Source: Planctomycetota bacterium
GTDB taxonomy: Bacteria > Planctomycetota > GCA-002687715 > CAIWVZ01
Assembly (NCBI GenBank): GCA_044222185.1
Contig: JBGANV010000001.1
Location: 1,568,001-1,632,000, forward strand
Length of the DNA stretch: 64,000 nt
Direction: 5' to 3'
The notes under the pieces were generated by a model. It worked only from the letters and a program-made list of their open reading frames with translations, was not told the DNA's origin and searched no databases. This document shows positions 11,372-62,091 of this stretch, piece by piece. How positions within the stretch are numbered: the stretch's first letter is position 1; every line of letters begins with the position of its first letter. The position numbers and the translations under genes were made by a program.

Positions 11372-12715
11372 TCACGCCAACTCCGCGATGAAGCAGACCG
11401 ATGAGCATTCCGTCAACCGCACGGGGACGACCTGCCCGGTGAAGTCGCGACCGGCCTTGAAGTGAACGATGTGATTCTGGTGCGTCCGTCCCGTCCAACG
11501 ATCCGCGTCGTTCTTGCTCGGGCCTTCGACGAGGACGTCGACGACGTTGCCGAGGCGACGCTGGTTCTTCGCGAGCGTGAGGTCGCGCTGGATCTCGAGA
11601 AGGGTCGTGTTGCGCTGTTCCTTGACGTCGATGGGCACGTCGTCCGCCCATTCCGACGCGCGCGTCCCTTCGCGGGGTGAATAGCGGAATACGAAGCTCG
11701 ATTGGTAGTCGACCTCGCGCAGCAACGCGACGCTCTGATCGAATTCCGCGTCGGACTCGCCTGGGAAGCCGACGATCCAGTCGGTCGCGAGCGAGAGGTC
11801 CGGAACGTGGCGACGCATGCGCGCCACGGCGGCCCTGTACTCGTCGACCGTGTATCCGCGGTTCATGCGCCGCAGGACGGTGTCGCTCCCGGACTGGACC
11901 GGAAGGTGCAAGTAGCGGGAAACGCGCGGGTGATCGGCGATCGCTCGCGCGAGGTCCTCGGTCATGTGATTCGGGTGCGACGTGATGAACGTCAACCGAA
12001 CGAGTTCCGGCACCTGCTCGTGGATCTCGGAGAGGAGGCGCGCGAGCGTGACGCCGTCGCCGAGGTCCAATCCGTAGGTGTCGACGCGCTGTCCCAGCAA
12101 CGTCACCTCGATCACGCCGTCCTGGACCAGGCGCTTGATCTCGTCCAGGATGTCAGCGATCGGTCGACTCCGCTCGCGCCCCTGAGTGAACGGGACGATG
12201 CAGAAGGTGCAGAACTTGTTGCAGCCCCGCATCACGGTGACGAAGGCCTGGTGCTGCTTGGGACGGACCGAGATGTCGCGAGTGAAACTCAGCTCCTTCT
12301 CATCCACCGCGAGTACGCGTTGCCCGTGCTTCACTTCGTCCAGCAGGGCCACGACGTCCTCGAACCGGTAGGTGCCGACGACGAGGTCGACGTGGGGCGC
12401 CTTCTCGAAGATGAGGTCCTTGTGGTTTTGCGCCATGCAGCCCATGACACCGATGACGGTCGACGGACGCTCCTTCTTCAGCCGCTTCAGGGAGCCGAGC
12501 CGGGCGTACACCTTGTCCTCCGCGTGCTCGCGCACGCTGCAGGTGTAGTAGAGGATCACGTCGGCCTCGCCGGGGGCCGTGGCGCGGCGGAAGCCCGCTC
12601 CCTGAAGACGCCCCGTCACGAGCTCTGAATCCAGCCGGTTCATCTGGCACCCCATGTCCTCCAGGTAGAAGGACGGGGCTTGTTGCTGGCTCAAGTCGAA
12701 CTGCGATAACGCCAT
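11372..12715 (-). CDS. miaB: tRNA-2-methylthio-N6-dimethylallyladenosine synthase
   Basis: GCQMN, TCSVREHAE, GCMAQ, radical SAM CNKFCTFC, HLPVQSGS, C-terminal TRAM domain. Confidence 0.96.
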   Translation of the reverse strand: MALSQFDLSQQQAPSFYLEDMGCQMNRLDSELVTGRLQGAGFRRATAPGEADVILYYTCSVREHAEDKVYARLGSLKRLKKERPSTVIGVMGCMAQNHKDLIFEKAPHVDLVVGTYRFEDVVALLDEVKHGQRVLAVDEKELSFTRDISVRPKQHQAFVTVMRGCNKFCTFCIVPFTQGRERSRPIADILDEIKRLVQDGVIEVTLLGQRVDTYGLDLGDGVTLARLLSEIHEQVPELVRLTFITSHPNHMTEDLARAIADHPRVSRYLHLPVQSGSDTVLRRMNRGYTVDEYRAAVARMRRHVPDLSLATDWIVGFPGESDAEFDQSVALLREVDYQSSFVFRYSPREGTRASEWADDVPIDVKEQRNTTLLEIQRDLTLAKNQRRLGNVVDVLVEGPSKNDADRWTGRTHQNHIVHFKAGRDFTGQVVPVRLTECSSVCFIAELA

Positions 12716-12818: not shown

Positions 12819-12836
12819 CGTAAGCACAGCTTTACG
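12819..12836. promoter_or_regulatory. Inverted repeat; candidate enhancer-binding-protein site
   Basis: CGTAA-N8-TTACG, about 160 bp upstream of the sigma54 promoter. It could instead serve the divergent miaB promoter. Confidence 0.4.
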
Positions 12837-12997
12837 CATGCAACGTCGCTTTGAGGGTTGGACCCCTCCGCGGCCATGGTGGAGCGGCTTCGCCGGCGGT
12901 TCCCACGTCCGCACGGACGGTCAGATCGCGGGCGGTTCACGCGAGATTCCCGCGCGTTCTTCATCGCGCTCGAAAAGCCGGCGCGACCGACACGCGG

Positions 12998-13013
12998 TGG
13001 CACACCCGTTGCA
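12998..13013 (+). promoter_or_regulatory. Sigma54 (-24/-12) promoter
   Basis: TGGCACACCCGTTGCA is an exact match to TGGCAC-N5-TTGCW, lies in an intergenic region, and predicts +1 near 13024. Confidence 0.8.
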
Positions 13014-13023
13014 ATACACCACA

Positions 13024-13179
13024 TGTCGCGGGCGACCACGGTCGCGCGCAACGAACGAACAACGAGTCGCCGCCTTCGGTGGCTCAAACAGTTTGGCTTC
13101 CGCGAGGAAGTCAAAGCAAGTGTTGGGTGATAGTTCCAAGAGTGAGCCGGTACTCGGAGTGCCGGCTTGCTCTTTTTTT
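13024..13179 (+). ncRNA. Candidate structured small RNA (~155 nt)
   Basis: Lies between the sigma54 promoter and an intrinsic terminator; hairpins at 13028-13049, 13064-13085, 13092-13115 (GCGA tetraloop) and 13138-13174, with A/C-rich linkers. Confidence 0.65.
13138..13179 (+). terminator. Rho-independent terminator
   Basis: AAGAGTGAGCCGGTACT-cgg-AGTGCCGGCTTGCTCTT stem, with a T7 run at 13173-13179. Confidence 0.85.
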
Positions 13180-13480
13180 GTGCACCGAGCGCACGGTCCG
13201 TCGGCTGGAATTCCAGCCTCGATGGAGCACCGCCCGATTCGCCGAGGGACCTCGGCCCACCTTCCCGCGATCCCCCCGCGCACCGCATGGGCGCGACCGA
13301 GGGAAGCCGGGCACGTCGACGCGACGTCACTCTCGGCCGTGATTTCACGAGGTCGAGTCACGCAGCGGCCTGACGCGACGCTGTCTCCCTCCATGCGCCA
13401 CGCGGACCTGGCGTGACCTTGTGGACTGACCGTCAGTCCGCGGTCGCGCTCGGGGCGTGGTCGCGCGAAAGGAGACGCCC

Positions 13481-16400
13481 ATGAATCGCGTGATCGTGAT
13501 GTCCCTGGCGACGCTCGTCGTCGCAAGCTTCTCACCGGGTCAAGCGGCCCCCCTTCCTGAGACGCTCGTGTCGTACCCGCTTTGGACCGGAACCCTCCAG
13601 AACGTCGTGGACGAACCCATCGCCGCCTACTCGACGACGATCTTCGTGCCCGGGGCGTCCGCGCTCCAGGTCCACTTGGACGAGGTCACCCTCGCGACGG
13701 ACGAGGACGCCGTCGTGTTCCGAAGCCCCATCACGGGCGAAGTCCAACGGATGACACGCGGCGTTCTGAAGCAATGGAAGAACTCGTCGGCGTGGTTCCG
13801 GGGCGCGGCCGTCGAAATGACGGTGACCTTGGCGCCCACATCGGTAGCCGAAGTGTCGGTGGCATCCGTCAGCATCCTCCCCGGGATCACCGTCGACGGG
13901 ACATCCGGGGTCTGCGGCGCCGAGGACCGCGTGGCAAGTTCGTCGAACGCCATCTGCCGATTGCGTGGGAACGGCTTCCTCTGTTCGGGGTCGCTCGCCG
14001 ACAACGGAACCTACTGCGTGTCTGCCGGCCACTGCGTCTCCGACAGCGGCGGGCCGAGCTTCCCGGGCACGCTCGTGCTGGCCGAGTTCAACGTCCCATC
14101 GTCCACGTCATCCGGCACCCTCGTACCCGCGGCCGTTGCCGATCAATACCCGGTCGACGTCGGCTCGATCGACTTCGAGAACGGCGGCACCGGAGCGGAC
14201 TGGTCGGTCTTCCGCCTGCATCCGAACTCGAGCGGAGAGACGGCATTCGCCCGCCAGGGCGCGGCCTTCGGGCTCGCCAGCGCCCTCCCCTTCCCGCTCG
14301 CGACCGTGCGCATGCGCGGGTTCGGCCAGCACGACACCGTGCCGACGCTGAACCGTGCGCCACACACGGCCGCCGGGACGTTCGTCGGGGTCGTGTTCGA
14401 CCTCATCTCGCACCTCGTCGACCTCGACCACGGTGACTCCGGTGGACCGCTCACCGACGCCAACGGAGATCTGATCGGCGTCAACACGCACGCCGGGTGC
14501 AACCCCGTCGGCTCCAATGTCGCAACGAGCATCTTCCGACCTGCGTTCACTGCGGCCCGCAACGCGGCCCGGGCCTGCGGCACGACGACGCTCACGAACA
14601 GCAGCAGCGCGACGCAACTCTCGTGCGAGCCGCGGATCATCTCGATCACGCCCTCGACGACTGCGTGGAACATCGTCGCCGTCTCGGACGCGAACGACGA
14701 CTACGACATCCAGATCGACAACACGATCTCGTCCCAGAACGGAAGCGCCTGCGACTTCCTCGTCTCCGACGGCAACGCAACTCCGACGCCCGATCCCGTC
14801 AATGCGTTCGTGTTCGGAATTGGATCCGTCGGCTTCGGCGACGTCCAGTTCCGGACGGCATCCACCATGAACGTGGGCTCGCTCGCCACGATCGCCTGGG
14901 GCTCCAACCAGCTGGTCGAAATCCGCGAGTTCCTGGTCACGACGACCGACACGTACGACATCACGGTCGCCGGCGCCTCCGGCTTCAACTGGCGTGTCTA
15001 TCGCCCCAACGGCAGCTCGGCGTGGCGTACGCGCTCGAACGCCAACGTCAGCGGCGCCGTGAACGGTGGAACCCTGAACGGCGTCAGCCTCACGCCGGGC
15101 GTCCACGCTCTCGTGATCTTCAAGGACGGGAACCCGGGCGCTGCCAACCCCTCGACGTTCACGGCGATGGTGGCGCATTCGACGCCGAGCGTCGCACTTA
15201 CGACGACGACCACGACGGTGACGGCCGACGGTCAGCCGTTCACGGTCAGCCCCATCGCCGGCAACTGGACCGCAGTGTCGGCCTCCTCGCCCTCTGACTG
15301 GAACATCGCGATCGGAACCGCGTTCGACACGCAAGGCGGAACCATCAGCGCTTTCGTACTCGCCGACGGGCACGCAGGGACGATCACGCCGACGGAAGGC
15401 GTCCTCGATCACGTATCGGGCTCAGACCCGGCCGAAGCCCAGGTCGCAACGGGGACGACGATCTCCGTGAACGACACGTTCGCGACGTCGTTGAGCGCGG
15501 GCAGCGTGATCCGGATCTATCAGTTCAACGTGACGGTCGCAGGAAACTACGACGTCGGCGTGACGGGTGGCGACGGATCGACTGGCCTCAACTGGCGCGT
15601 GTATGCACCGGACGGCAGCAGCGACTGGCGCGGGCGTTCGACGTTCATCACCGGCGGCGACGTCGGTGGAACGATCGCGACCGGGCTGTCGCTGTCGACG
15701 GGTTGGCACGCGCTCGTGGTGTTCCGAGACGGTGGATCCGTCGCGACCGCCACGAGCTATCAAGTCCACGTCTACGCCGCCTCGGCCGTCGACGACCTCA
15801 CGCTCGGCGAGAACAACCTGGTGACCGCACAGAACCAGCTGTTCACCGTTCTGACCGGGCTCGGCCAATGGAACGCCGTCGGCGTGACGAGCACGGGGAC
15901 GACTGAGTGTGATGCCTACATCGGGACCGCGTCTTCGACGGCCTCCGGCGGGGGGAACACGGACTTCGTGCTCTCCAACGGGCACCTGGGCGCCACGCCC
16001 GGCTTCGTCGGGATCGTCACGCGTGACACGGGCACGGACGCCTACGACGTCGAGCGGGCGGCCGTCGCGACGATGGCGATCGGGACGACACTCAACTCGA
16101 CGTTCGCGTCCAACGGGGTCATCCGGCTGTTCGAGTTCCCGGTCACGGCGACGGGCTCGTTCGACGTGACGACCACGGGACTGTCGACGCTGGGATGGAG
16201 CATCTTCGCGCCCGGCTCGAGCGCAGCCTGGATCCGTCGCGCGGACGACGTCACTTCCGGAATCATCGGTGGCGGCGCCGGCATCCTGACGACGACGCAG
16301 ACCGGGACTCACGTGCTCGCCGTCTATCGCACAGGCGCGACGGGCTCCACGGCGGCGTTCTCCGTGACGATCACGCCGCGCAACCCGGTCCCGACCGTCT

Positions 16401-18439
16401 CGACCGTGAGCCCGTCCTCGATCCTGTCGGGGGCCAGCGCCTTCACGCTCACCGTCAACGGGACTGGATTCGTGAACGGGTCCGTCGTGAGGTGGAACGG
16501 AGTGGGCCTCGCCACGACGTTCGTCTCGGCGACCCAGCTCACGGCATCCGTTCCCGCGGCGAACGTCGCGACCGCGGGCACCGCCTCCGTCACGGCCTTC
16601 AACGCTGCACCCGGCGGAGGTACTTCGGGCCCGGTCGTCGTGACGATCAACAACCCCGTCCCGATCGTCGCGTCGCTCTCGCCCGCGTCGGCGACTGCCG
16701 GCGGCGCCGCGTTCACGCTCACCGTCAACGGGTCGTCGTTCCGGACGGGCGCCATCGTCCGATGGAACGGCGCGAACCGCGCGACGACCTTCGTCAGCGC
16801 GACGCAGCTGACGGCGTCGATCACCGCGGCGGACATCGCAACGGCCGGTTCGGCGTCGGTGACCGTGGTCAACGCGGCGCCGGGCGGTGGGACATCGGGA
16901 TCGCTGGCCTTCGCCGTGAACAACCCGTTGCCTGCACTCGCGGCGATCAGTCCCGCGTCCGCCACGTCGCTCGGCGCGGCGTTCACGCTGACTGCCACCG
17001 GGAGCAACTTTCGGAGCAACTCGATCGTGCGGTGGAATGGCGTCGACCTGGCGACGACCTTCGTGTCGGCAACGCAGCTCACGGCTGCCGTTCCCGCTGC
17101 GAACCTGACCGTCAACGGAACCGTGCCGGTCACCGTCTTCACACCGGCGCCAGGGGGCGGCACCACCGCCCCGCGGACGTTCACGATCAACGACCCGGTG
17201 CCGGCGATCTCCGCCATCAGCCCCACGAGCCGAACGGCTGGCGGCGCCGCGTTCACCCTGACCGTCACGGGTTCGAACTTCCGTTCGACGTCGTCGGTGC
17301 AGTGGAACGGAAGCGGCCGCACAACCACGTTCGTGAGCCCCACCCAGCTGACGGCCGCGATCCCGGCGTCGGACATCGCCACCGGCGGTTCCGCCTCCGT
17401 CACGGTCTCGAACCCGGTCCCCGGGGGTGGCACGTCGGGCGCGGCCACGCTCACGGTGAACAATCCGACCCCGGTGCTGGCCTCGGTGACCCCCGCGACG
17501 ATCTTGGCCGGGGCGCCCTCCGCGACGCTCACGTTGAACGGCTCCAACTTCAACGCGCAGTCGCAGGTCCGATGGAACGGGTCGGCGGCCGGCATCACGA
17601 CGCTCGTGGCGTCGGCGACGCAGCTGACGGCGACGATCCCCGGTTCACTCTTGAATGCCGTCGGTGCTGCGAGTGTGACGGTGTTCAACCCGGTGCCGAG
17701 TGGCGGCACGTCCGTCGCGCGCACCGTCACGACCGTGGGGCCGCGGCTGTTGGCGTTCTCCCCCACGTTCATCGCCGGACCGGTGACGGCAGGGAGCCCG
17801 CCGACGACCGTGACCTTCAGTCCCGTCGACGGCATCAGCGCCGCAGCGACGACGTTCTTCGTGAACGGTCATGCCGTGGCGGCCAACATGGTGGCAGCGC
17901 CGGTGGTCGTGACCATCACGATCCCGTCGACGATCGCCGAGATGCAGCGCCCCGGTGGGGTCACCATCACGGCGAGGAACTTCGGCACCTTCACGTCGAA
18001 TGCCGTCGCACTCGAGATCGGCGACCACAACAACCGCGGAACGATCGAGCAGAACCCGGTGGCGCCGGCGCCGGGTCAGAACTTCACGCTCATGGTGGAG
18101 GACTGTCTCCCGAACGTGCCGTTCATGTTGTTCGCGGATCCGGCGAACATCACGCCGCTCGTCGGGTTTCCTGACCCCGTGACCGACCTGGTCCTGGGCG
18201 TCAACCTGCTTCCGCAGACGACGATCCTCGACGGCATCGGGGTCTTCATGCCGGCGCAGGCGTTCGCGGTCTTCTCGCCTGATCCAGTGCTGCCGGGACG
18301 GGGGCGGTTCGCGCTGCCGGGCCTCGTTCAGCCCAATCCGCCGCTGAACGCCACGATCACCCTCCAGGTGATCTATCCGGATCCGTCGCTGCCCGCGGGG
18401 TTCCGCCTCACGCACGCGCGCGGGGGCTTCGACATGTGA
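13481..18439 (+). CDS. Large secreted trypsin-like serine protease with three ~200-aa repeats, tandem IPT/TIG-like repeats and a C-terminal beta domain
   Basis: AGGAG RBS before ATG 13481; signal peptide; catalytic SAGHC / ADW / GDSGG; repeats visible in the translation. Confidence 0.88.
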   Translation: MNRVIVMSLATLVVASFSPGQAAPLPETLVSYPLWTGTLQNVVDEPIAAYSTTIFVPGASALQVHLDEVTLATDEDAVVFRSPITGEVQRMTRGVLKQWKNSSAWFRGAAVEMTVTLAPTSVAEVSVASVSILPGITVDGTSGVCGAEDRVASSSNAICRLRGNGFLCSGSLADNGTYCVSAGHCVSDSGGPSFPGTLVLAEFNVPSSTSSGTLVPAAVADQYPVDVGSIDFENGGTGADWSVFRLHPNSSGETAFARQGAAFGLASALPFPLATVRMRGFGQHDTVPTLNRAPHTAAGTFVGVVFDLISHLVDLDHGDSGGPLTDANGDLIGVNTHAGCNPVGSNVATSIFRPAFTAARNAARACGTTTLTNSSSATQLSCEPRIISITPSTTAWNIVAVSDANDDYDIQIDNTISSQNGSACDFLVSDGNATPTPDPVNAFVFGIGSVGFGDVQFRTASTMNVGSLATIAWGSNQLVEIREFLVTTTDTYDITVAGASGFNWRVYRPNGSSAWRTRSNANVSGAVNGGTLNGVSLTPGVHALVIFKDGNPGAANPSTFTAMVAHSTPSVALTTTTTTVTADGQPFTVSPIAGNWTAVSASSPSDWNIAIGTAFDTQGGTISAFVLADGHAGTITPTEGVLDHVSGSDPAEAQVATGTTISVNDTFATSLSAGSVIRIYQFNVTVAGNYDVGVTGGDGSTGLNWRVYAPDGSSDWRGRSTFITGGDVGGTIATGLSLSTGWHALVVFRDGGSVATATSYQVHVYAASAVDDLTLGENNLVTAQNQLFTVLTGLGQWNAVGVTSTGTTECDAYIGTASSTASGGGNTDFVLSNGHLGATPGFVGIVTRDTGTDAYDVERAAVATMAIGTTLNSTFASNGVIRLFEFPVTATGSFDVTTTGLSTLGWSIFAPGSSAAWIRRADDVTSGIIGGGAGILTTTQTGTHVLAVYRTGATGSTAAFSVTITPRNPVPTVSTVSPSSILSGASAFTLTVNGTGFVNGSVVRWNGVGLATTFVSATQLTASVPAANVATAGTASVTAFNAAPGGGTSGPVVVTINNPVPIVASLSPASATAGGAAFTLTVNGSSFRTGAIVRWNGANRATTFVSATQLTASITAADIATAGSASVTVVNAAPGGGTSGSLAFAVNNPLPALAAISPASATSLGAAFTLTATGSNFRSNSIVRWNGVDLATTFVSATQLTAAVPAANLTVNGTVPVTVFTPAPGGGTTAPRTFTINDPVPAISAISPTSRTAGGAAFTLTVTGSNFRSTSSVQWNGSGRTTTFVSPTQLTAAIPASDIATGGSASVTVSNPVPGGGTSGAATLTVNNPTPVLASVTPATILAGAPSATLTLNGSNFNAQSQVRWNGSAAGITTLVASATQLTATIPGSLLNAVGAASVTVFNPVPSGGTSVARTVTTVGPRLLAFSPTFIAGPVTAGSPPTTVTFSPVDGISAAATTFFVNGHAVAANMVAAPVVVTITIPSTIAEMQRPGGVTITARNFGTFTSNAVALEIGDHNNRGTIEQNPVAPAPGQNFTLMVEDCLPNVPFMLFADPANITPLVGFPDPVTDLVLGVNLLPQTTILDGIGVFMPAQAFAVFSPDPVLPGRGRFALPGLVQPNPPLNATITLQVIYPDPSLPAGFRLTHARGGFDM
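16381..17730 (+). repeat. Five tandem 270-bp (90-aa) IPT/TIG-like coding repeats
   Basis: Units start near 16381, 16651, 16921, 17191 and 17461: NPVP...SP.S...G..AFTLTV.G..F...S.VRWNG...TTFVSATQLTA...PGGGTS. Confidence 0.9.
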
Positions 18440-62016: not shown

Positions 62017-62091
62017 TCGGGGCGGCGGGATTTGAACCCGCGACCTTCGGCTCCCAAAACCGACGCTCTAGCCAGGCTGAGCCACGCCCCG
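62017..62091 (-). tRNA. tRNA-Pro(TGG)
   Basis: Reverse complement CGGGGCGTGGCTCAGCCTGGCTAGAGCGTCGGTTTTGGGAGCCGAAGGTCGCGGGTTCAAATCCCGCCGCCCCGA folds as a cloverleaf; anticodon TGG; CCA not encoded. Confidence 0.95.

Follow-up and report, generated by a model that had tools for sequence, protein, structure and literature searches.

The segment at positions 12820-13179 of the window, by which is meant the whole 64,000-nucleotide stretch of Planctomycetota DNA analysed here, is read as a complete and autonomous small RNA (sRNA) gene. With a probability of roughly 0.6, its RNA of ~156 nt would be the founding member of a family limited to one class-level lineage of the Planctomycetota, and would serve as an activator- and sigma-54-controlled, Hfq-independent regulator that acts by base pairing. 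That the locus is a genuine non-coding RNA gene of the sigma-54 type is very probable; the mode of action is the weakest step of the explanation. The case for the gene, for its strand and for the layout of its control is comparative, and both its dependence on sigma-54 and the binding of an activator are predicted from the DNA. The family is a new one within a known category, the sigma-54-dependent sRNAs, and is unusual in being class-wide and single copy, in belonging to a lineage that lacks Hfq and in standing fixed beside miaB.

The genome that contains the window (G000) comprises 7.08 Mb in 16 contigs, with 67.5% G+C and an estimated completeness of 94%. It was compared principally with its class, represented by 23 genomes and coextensive with a single order. 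An earlier note, made from the letters of the window, had proposed a stand-alone regulatory RNA at this place. A single genome is insufficient to validate such a gene, since the exact promoter consensus, TGGCAC-N5-TTGC[AT], occurs three times in G000 against ~4.7 occurrences expected from base composition and is thus no commoner than chance; validation is supplied by the related genomes. The features of the locus are listed in Table 1.

Table 1. Features of the sRNA locus and its divergent neighbour, in window coordinates
Feature	Positions	Strand	Basis or remark
miaB (tRNA methylthiotransferase), divergent neighbour, context only	11372-12715	-	Pfam UPF0004, Radical_SAM and TRAM
16-bp dyad GTAAGCACAGCTTTAC, candidate upstream activator sequence for a sigma-54 enhancer-binding protein	12820-12835	.	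Conservation in homologues
Sigma-54 (-24/-12) promoter TGGCAC-N5-TTGCA	12998-13013	+	Read directly; predicted +1 near 13024
Predicted sRNA transcript, ~156 nt	13024-13179	+	MFE, single copy in G000, covariance-model matches, strand test
Variable 5' domain: hairpin 1, AACGAACGAACAAC linker, hairpin 2	13025-13085	+	Seen in G000, differs among genera
Hairpin P (hairpin 3 of the earlier note), directly 5' of the core	13092-13115	+	Perfect hairpin in 22/22 homologues
Conserved unpaired core GCAAGUGUUGGGUGAUAGUUCC, with invariant part CAAGUGUUGGGUGAU at 13117-13131	13116-13137	+	Proposed seed
Intrinsic terminator: 17-bp stem, 3-nt loop, T run	13138-13179	+	Hairpin after core in all homologues

Distribution and anatomy of the RNA

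A covariance model built on hairpin P, the core and the terminator finds exactly one match, scoring 43-92 bits, in each of 22 class genomes out of 23, covering four families and all 13 genera, and the gene is single copy in G000. The one class genome without a match (G015) has a contig on which miaB begins at base 19, so that the place where the RNA would be expected lies beyond the contig edge and was not assembled. A first blastn search, run against 60 other genomes, recovered a short core, with few or no mismatches, from 17 of the 22 genomes that share the order of G000. Outside the class, 144 Planctomycetota genomes yielded no credible match; the two weak ones (26 and 23 bits; L073 and L074) come without miaB, core or promoter and were rejected as homologues. 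Wider scans with short words added little: a 19-mer search of 185,579 species genomes returned 22 loci, made up of 16 genomes already found and six chance matches, and a 17-mer search of metagenomes gave at least 119 stretches, with two true members and three loci scoring near 24 bits among the 80 examined. One record of an uncultured bacterium (L046) has two copies of the 19-mer, separated by 87 bp and lying within a longer direct repeat of AT-rich DNA, and was dismissed as an unrelated tandem or CRISPR-like array. The 20 sequencing runs covered were all DNA metagenomes, from bioreactors or activated sludge.

The 157-nt RNA of G000 has a predicted minimum free energy (MFE) of -76.6 kcal/mol, compared with -53.6 +/- 3.6 kcal/mol for 200 shuffled sequences, none of which equalled it (z = -6.4). 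The direction of transcription is indicated by the folding as well, the promoter strand giving the better fold in 19 of 22 homologues and 139 G-U pairs, against 53 for its complement. The succession of hairpins that had been described from the window is borne out, namely hairpin 1 at 13025-13052 with its CACG loop, hairpin 2 at 13064-13085, hairpin 3 with 10 bp and a GCGA loop, and a terminator whose stem occupies 13138-13174 and whose T run reaches 13179. Across the homologues, comparison shows family-wide constraint on only three parts of the predicted RNA: the hairpin before the core, the core of 15-22 nt and the terminator.

The region 5' of these parts is variable, and because its hairpins vary, the predicted length of the RNA ranges from ~86 to 214 nt. 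This 5' part measures 20-153 nt, and its hairpins differ in number and sequence between genera; hairpin P alone precedes the core in one genus (g2), against three hairpins in G000 and ~150 nt in G007. The linker noted between hairpins 1 and 2 is indeed present at 13050-13063, but its CrcZ-like AAC repeats are, like hairpins 1 and 2 themselves, a lineage-specific trait rather than a feature of the family, being confined to G000 and, in reduced form, family f3. A second and more weakly conserved unpaired motif, (A)ACAACG, was observed here, at 13050-13064 of the window and in most f3 members (L049-L052, L064, L066 and L070); it is missing from the short g2 forms and from family f2. Its CAAC can pair with the GUUG of the core, and the MFE fold of the G000 RNA, not the centroid fold, pairs linker and core.

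Hairpin P was recovered by a search of each sequence on its own as a perfect stem of 5-10 bp, ending 1-4 nt before CAAG, in all 22 homologues. Its stem occurs in 14 distinct sequences, with compensating changes near the loop, where the loop-adjacent pair takes all four Watson-Crick types. The terminator is similarly general: a hairpin follows the core in 22/22, with 13-18 bp in the 20 homologues that were cleanly parsed (in G021 and G022 the parsing merged it with downstream sequence), and each of its 15 modelled pairs changes on both sides. In the model-fitted alignment as a whole, 74.6% of cells pair compared with 59.0% in shuffles, and 19 of 21 pairs change on both sides. The covariation score of 0.524, against 0.240 in shuffles, was reached by none of 500 shuffled alignments, and sliding the partners lowers every measure, so that the homologues with covariation that the earlier note had called for are at hand. 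Since an alignment fitted to a model leans towards that model's own structure, the per-sequence search for hairpin P was used as an independent check. The structure was obtained from a hand-given structure, realignment to the model and a stem search in each sequence; MAFFT with RNAalifold alone gave a poor structure because of register shifts.

Between these two hairpins lies the core. The segment at 13116-13137 had been labelled GU-rich, which it is, but that description falls short, as it turns out to be a conserved functional part of the RNA. Its sequence CAAGUGUUGGGUGAU is identical in 21 of 22 homologues from four families, G011 alone carrying a 3-nt insertion, while the MiaB protein encoded next to it is only 55-72% identical over the same genomes. 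In the centroid fold of the RNA from G000 the core is left unpaired. Across the homologues, its predicted probability of being unpaired is 0.41 compared with 0.33 for the rest of the RNA, and is the higher of the two in 16 of 22, as computed with crude 3' ends.

Promoter, upstream dyad and genomic setting

The promoter reads exactly as first described, with TGGCAC at 12998-13003, a 5-nt spacer at 13004-13008 and TTGCA at 13009-13013. A -24/-12 element with GG-N10-GC spacing and the form (T/C)GG(C/A/T)A(C/T)-N5-(T/A/G)TGC is found in all 22 homologues, at a promoter-to-core distance of 53-186 nt (upstream of GGGUGAU). The same pattern has six further matches in 132,644 nt of homologous loci, equivalent to 0.010 per 230 nt, and against this background its retention in 22/22 places the promoter above chance. 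An overlapping sigma-70 promoter was sought at the locus and none was found.

Two genes of the wider machinery had been singled out by the earlier note, rpoN and hfq, and they fared differently. G000 has one rpoN, and 21 of the 23 class genomes have the gene; the Pfam Hfq family has no match in any of the 23, of which 13 are at least 90% complete. Enhancer-binding proteins are plentiful, G000 having 14 strong Sigma54_activat (AAA+) matches. Gene counts cannot single out the activator of the sRNA gene, as there are 7-13 such proteins even in the small genomes of the class.

Upstream of the promoter is a 16-bp dyad, at which a putative enhancer-binding protein may bind. In 21 of 22 homologues the pattern GT[AC][AC]-N8-[GT][GT]AC precedes the -24 GG by 103-179 bp, with a near variant in G003, and its commonest form is CGTAAG-N6-CTTTACA (GTAAG-N6-CTTTAC type). 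Its background rate is six matches in 60,162 nt, or 0.03 per 300 nt. In the whole 7.08 Mb of G000, GTAA-N8-TTAC has three sites, and the other two have no sigma-54-like promoter nearby. The half-sites vary by lineage, being GTAA in most genomes, GTCA in G002, G003, G005 and G007, and GTCC in G001 and G004, and this variation offers a route to the cognate activator through co-variation.

Two rearranged genomes bear on the question of which gene the dyad serves. In G022 an extra gene separates the RNA gene from miaB, yet only 103 bp still divide the dyad from the promoter of the RNA; in G006 the unit has been inverted as a whole, standing in tandem upstream of miaB, and the dyad remains upstream of the RNA promoter. 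Both cases assign the dyad to the RNA gene rather than to miaB. With its own promoter and terminator, and having moved intact in both genomes, the unit behaves as the stand-alone RNA gene originally suggested.

Members of family f2 (L054-L058, L063, L065, L067 and L069) display a further motif between dyad and promoter, CTT(A/G)GAGA and then an A/T-rich run, some 25-45 nt before the -24 element; G021 has CTTAGGGA nearer in. This arrangement could be a DNA-bending (IHF-type) site or the site of a second regulator. Elsewhere in G000, outside the window, a second sigma-54 candidate was seen at C1:1508287-1508471 on the minus strand (L236), where TGGCAC-N5-ATGC is followed ~180 nt on by a very strong terminator. 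The stretch was left non-coding by crude gene calls, and its predicted RNA contains the anti-Shine-Dalgarno-like AAUCCUCCUCC. It was not retained as a conserved sRNA, as blastn found it in none of 120 other Planctomycetota genomes sampled (four from the class), with two weak partial matches.

The identification of the upstream neighbour as miaB is confirmed by its Pfam domains, and the neighbourhood is conserved on this side only. The gene lies within 2.5 kb of the RNA in 22/22 homologues, adjoining it in 21 of 22 three-kb loci and standing 2.4 kb off on the same contig in G022, and its orientation is divergent in 21/22 and co-directional in G006. The other flank differs, being occupied variously by a gene with a prepilin-type N-terminal methylation motif (N_methyl), metK, an enoyl-CoA hydratase, a methyltransferase, a carbamoyltransferase or family-less ORFs; in all, the downstream gene represents six or more families and may be encoded on either strand. 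In the window this flank is a 1660-aa ORF (13457-18439, plus strand) with weak Trypsin and TIG matches only, situated between the RNA gene and an N_methyl-metK pair. Because that pair directly flanks the RNA in several relatives, the ORF looks like an insertion specific to G000.

Possible modes of action

In the mechanism proposed here, a signal-responsive enhancer-binding protein would bind the dyad and activate sigma-54 RNA polymerase at the promoter, with transcription starting near 13024 and ending at the intrinsic terminator. The core CAAGUGUUGGGUGAU(AGUUCC), which is G/U-rich and unpaired, would provide the seed of a trans-acting, Hfq-independent riboregulator, whose expected partners are C/A-rich stretches (AUCACCCAACACUUG-like) of several mRNAs. 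Through such pairing, one environmental signal would be converted into control at the post-transcriptional level. Seeds are usually built in this way, as one invariant unpaired stretch set between a hairpin and the terminator, and base pairing is considered marginally the better bet as the mode of action.

Searches for targets gave no group of mRNAs to support this. Over the 5' regions of 3,644 crude gene calls in G000, the core pairs no better than reversed or shuffled seeds; sites below -22 kcal/mol number 81 for the real seed compared with 47, 209 and 149 for three controls. The top site, at the gene of a secreted hypothetical protein (C16:125742), scores -30.2 and was counted as within the range of the controls, which extends down to -29.5. 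The best extended site, of 16 bp upstream of prfC, is peculiar to G000 and is not kept at the other six prfC loci; with an 80-aa N-terminal query, prfC (peptide chain release factor 3) was located in 7 of the 23 class genomes. When the complement of a 14-mer was sought in the 23 genomes, the matches inspected beyond the RNA genes themselves were attributable to chance and mostly intragenic (for example in infB and an asparagine synthase-like gene), with one further match just past the end of pheS. The neighbour miaB was also rejected as a target, its 5' region at 21 loci giving z-scores mostly of -1 to +1.3 relative to shuffles in what is a weak test.

The want of a conserved mRNA target, and of any excess of complementary sites, would equally suit an RNA that binds or decoys a protein, with the core and hairpin P together forming the recognition site. 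GlmY, which works as a protein decoy by sequestering RapZ, is an example of such an RNA. Strict invariance of a 15-nt core at every position in four families also suits recognition by a protein, as does the hairpin that is always present beside it. Any such partner would be other than Hfq, as Hfq is found in 0/23 genomes, and no candidate protein is linked to the locus. Moreover, sponge RNAs usually carry their motif in several copies, but each RNA here has a single core, and this core has no repeated GGA or A-rich motif. Nor is invariance peculiar to protein sites, for the multi-target seed of Qrr is equally invariant. A protein-binding role is on these grounds unlikely, yet it stays a serious rival because no conserved target was found and the accessibility of the core is only modestly raised. 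The constant company of miaB invites another explanation, in which the promoter, the activator site or the transcript serves miaB in cis, by promoter competition or by pairing with its leader. This would account for the fixed linkage in 22/22 genomes, beside a flank that otherwise varies, and in G000 the dyad is only 105 bp from the miaB start codon. A cis role is nevertheless very unlikely: the core has no complementarity to the miaB 5' region beyond that of shuffles at 21 loci, the unit is intact despite the intervening gene of G022 and the inversion of G006, and promoter interference needs neither a strong terminator nor an invariant core.

It is far less probable still that the locus serves the downstream gene as a 5' leader or riboswitch, or that it encodes a small protein. 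The downstream genes vary in family and strand, and a full terminator stands before them. The case for a protein comes from G000, in which an ATG ORF of 35 codons (13023-13130, plus strand) ends exactly at the tandem stops UGA-UAG of the core. Against this, an ORF with a start codon and ending at the core UGA is present in only 9 of 22 copies, at lengths of 7-35 codons, and these ORFs are unrelated in sequence save for a few residues read from the conserved core. The core is also unlike evolving coding sequence, because it is invariant at every codon position.

Relation to known regulatory RNAs

The RNA matches none of the families catalogued in Rfam 15, which gives no gathering-level match in the region, in keeping with the initial failure to recognise it. 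At E<=10 there are six chance-level matches and none to Qrr. The best is narK RNA (RF03032), at 17 bits and E = 1.3 compared with a cut-off of 43.2 bits; it was rejected, its best-aligned letters being those of the promoter (GGCAC..TTGC), and no narK gene is present among the scanned neighbours. Two housekeeping RNAs were set aside in the same way, since their matches in G000 lie elsewhere: a 6S-like match at C1:77549-77724 (plus strand; 42.1 bits against a cut-off of 46.4), which is probably the divergent 6S RNA of this lineage, and an SRP RNA match at C1:368205-368302. Within the window, the sole Rfam match at gathering level is a tRNA gene at 62017-62091 on the minus strand.

The closest characterised systems share elements of design. 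The Qrr sRNAs of Vibrio act with Hfq, and their conserved stretch is the seed. They resemble the present RNA in being short, in having a sigma-54 promoter and in combining several hairpins with a strongly conserved unpaired stretch and a terminator. Transcription of the Qrr genes is described as depending on a sigma-54 promoter that needs an enhancer-binding protein, LuxO (10.1101/2021.07.01.450815; PMC3730234). The two differ in that there is no similarity of sequence or to the covariance model; the present family is single copy, adjoins miaB rather than an activator gene, comes from another phylum and occurs where Hfq is found in none of 23 genomes.

GlmY and GlmZ of the Enterobacteriaceae, controlled by GlrR (QseF), offer a likeness in regulatory layout, as they too are described with a sigma-54 promoter and conserved upstream dyad activator sites, for which the GlrR consensus is TGTCN10GACA (PMC3045617). 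The geometry of four bases on either side of N10 is shared, the dyad here being of the form xGTA-N10-TACx, and in 2 of 22 homologues, G002 and G003, it reads exactly TGTC-N10-GACA. This GlrR-type geometry is a lead on the type of activator that may be involved and not an identification. In both systems, one sRNA appears to be essentially the whole output of a dedicated activator, and this arrangement would follow the logic of LuxO-Qrr or GlrR-GlmY. The RNAs themselves are not similar, a single dyad is recognised here as opposed to the three GlrR sites described in that account, and the present locus has no overlapping sigma-70 promoter that could be found.

CrcZ of Pseudomonas, an sRNA tied to nutrient signals, is governed by CbrB and sigma-54, and its repeated A-rich motifs bind Hfq. 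The present family departs from it in lacking an Rfam match, in having AAC-repeat linkers in G000 only (reduced in f3) and in the absence of Hfq from the genomes searched. Induction of the sRNA through an enhancer-binding protein is common to CrcZ and to NrsZ, the latter being described as an NtrB/C-induced sRNA of Pseudomonas that is tied to nutrient signals (PMC4253122). With GcvB there is a likeness in possible working only and not of membership, as no homology and no target class were found. GcvB is not sigma-54-dependent; for a G/U-rich unpaired seed of its type, the expected partners are C/A-rich sites near ribosome-binding sites.

Full-text searches of the literature, which returned mostly abstracts, brought up no description of the present RNA, of any sigma-54 sRNA in Planctomycetes or of a characterised regulatory RNA from the Planctomycetota. 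A bolder proposal, itself quite unlikely, is that the sRNA stands at the end of a signal pathway of its own, running from a sensor through an enhancer-binding protein and sigma-54 to one sRNA, which belongs to the core genome of the class and works free of Hfq, and that its linkage to miaB, retained despite an inversion and an insertion, is functional rather than inherited by descent. In that event, the pathway would couple an environmental signal to the ms2i6A37 modification of tRNA or to Fe-S/SAM economy, and hence to the decoding of UNN codons. To our knowledge, no known sigma-54 sRNA makes such a coupling.

The lineage is without a cultured member among the genome records examined, and the related genomes are metagenome-derived Planctomycetota; as new assemblies of this kind appear, the covariance model offers a means of annotating the family in them. 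Defined purely by comparing 22 genomes, the locus presents a full regulatory unit that can be tested, from candidate activator site and sigma-54 promoter to proposed seed and terminator. It thereby lengthens the short list of sigma-54-dependent sRNAs, which includes Qrr, GlmY/Z, CrcZ and NrsZ, and carries their design into a lineage that lacks Hfq.
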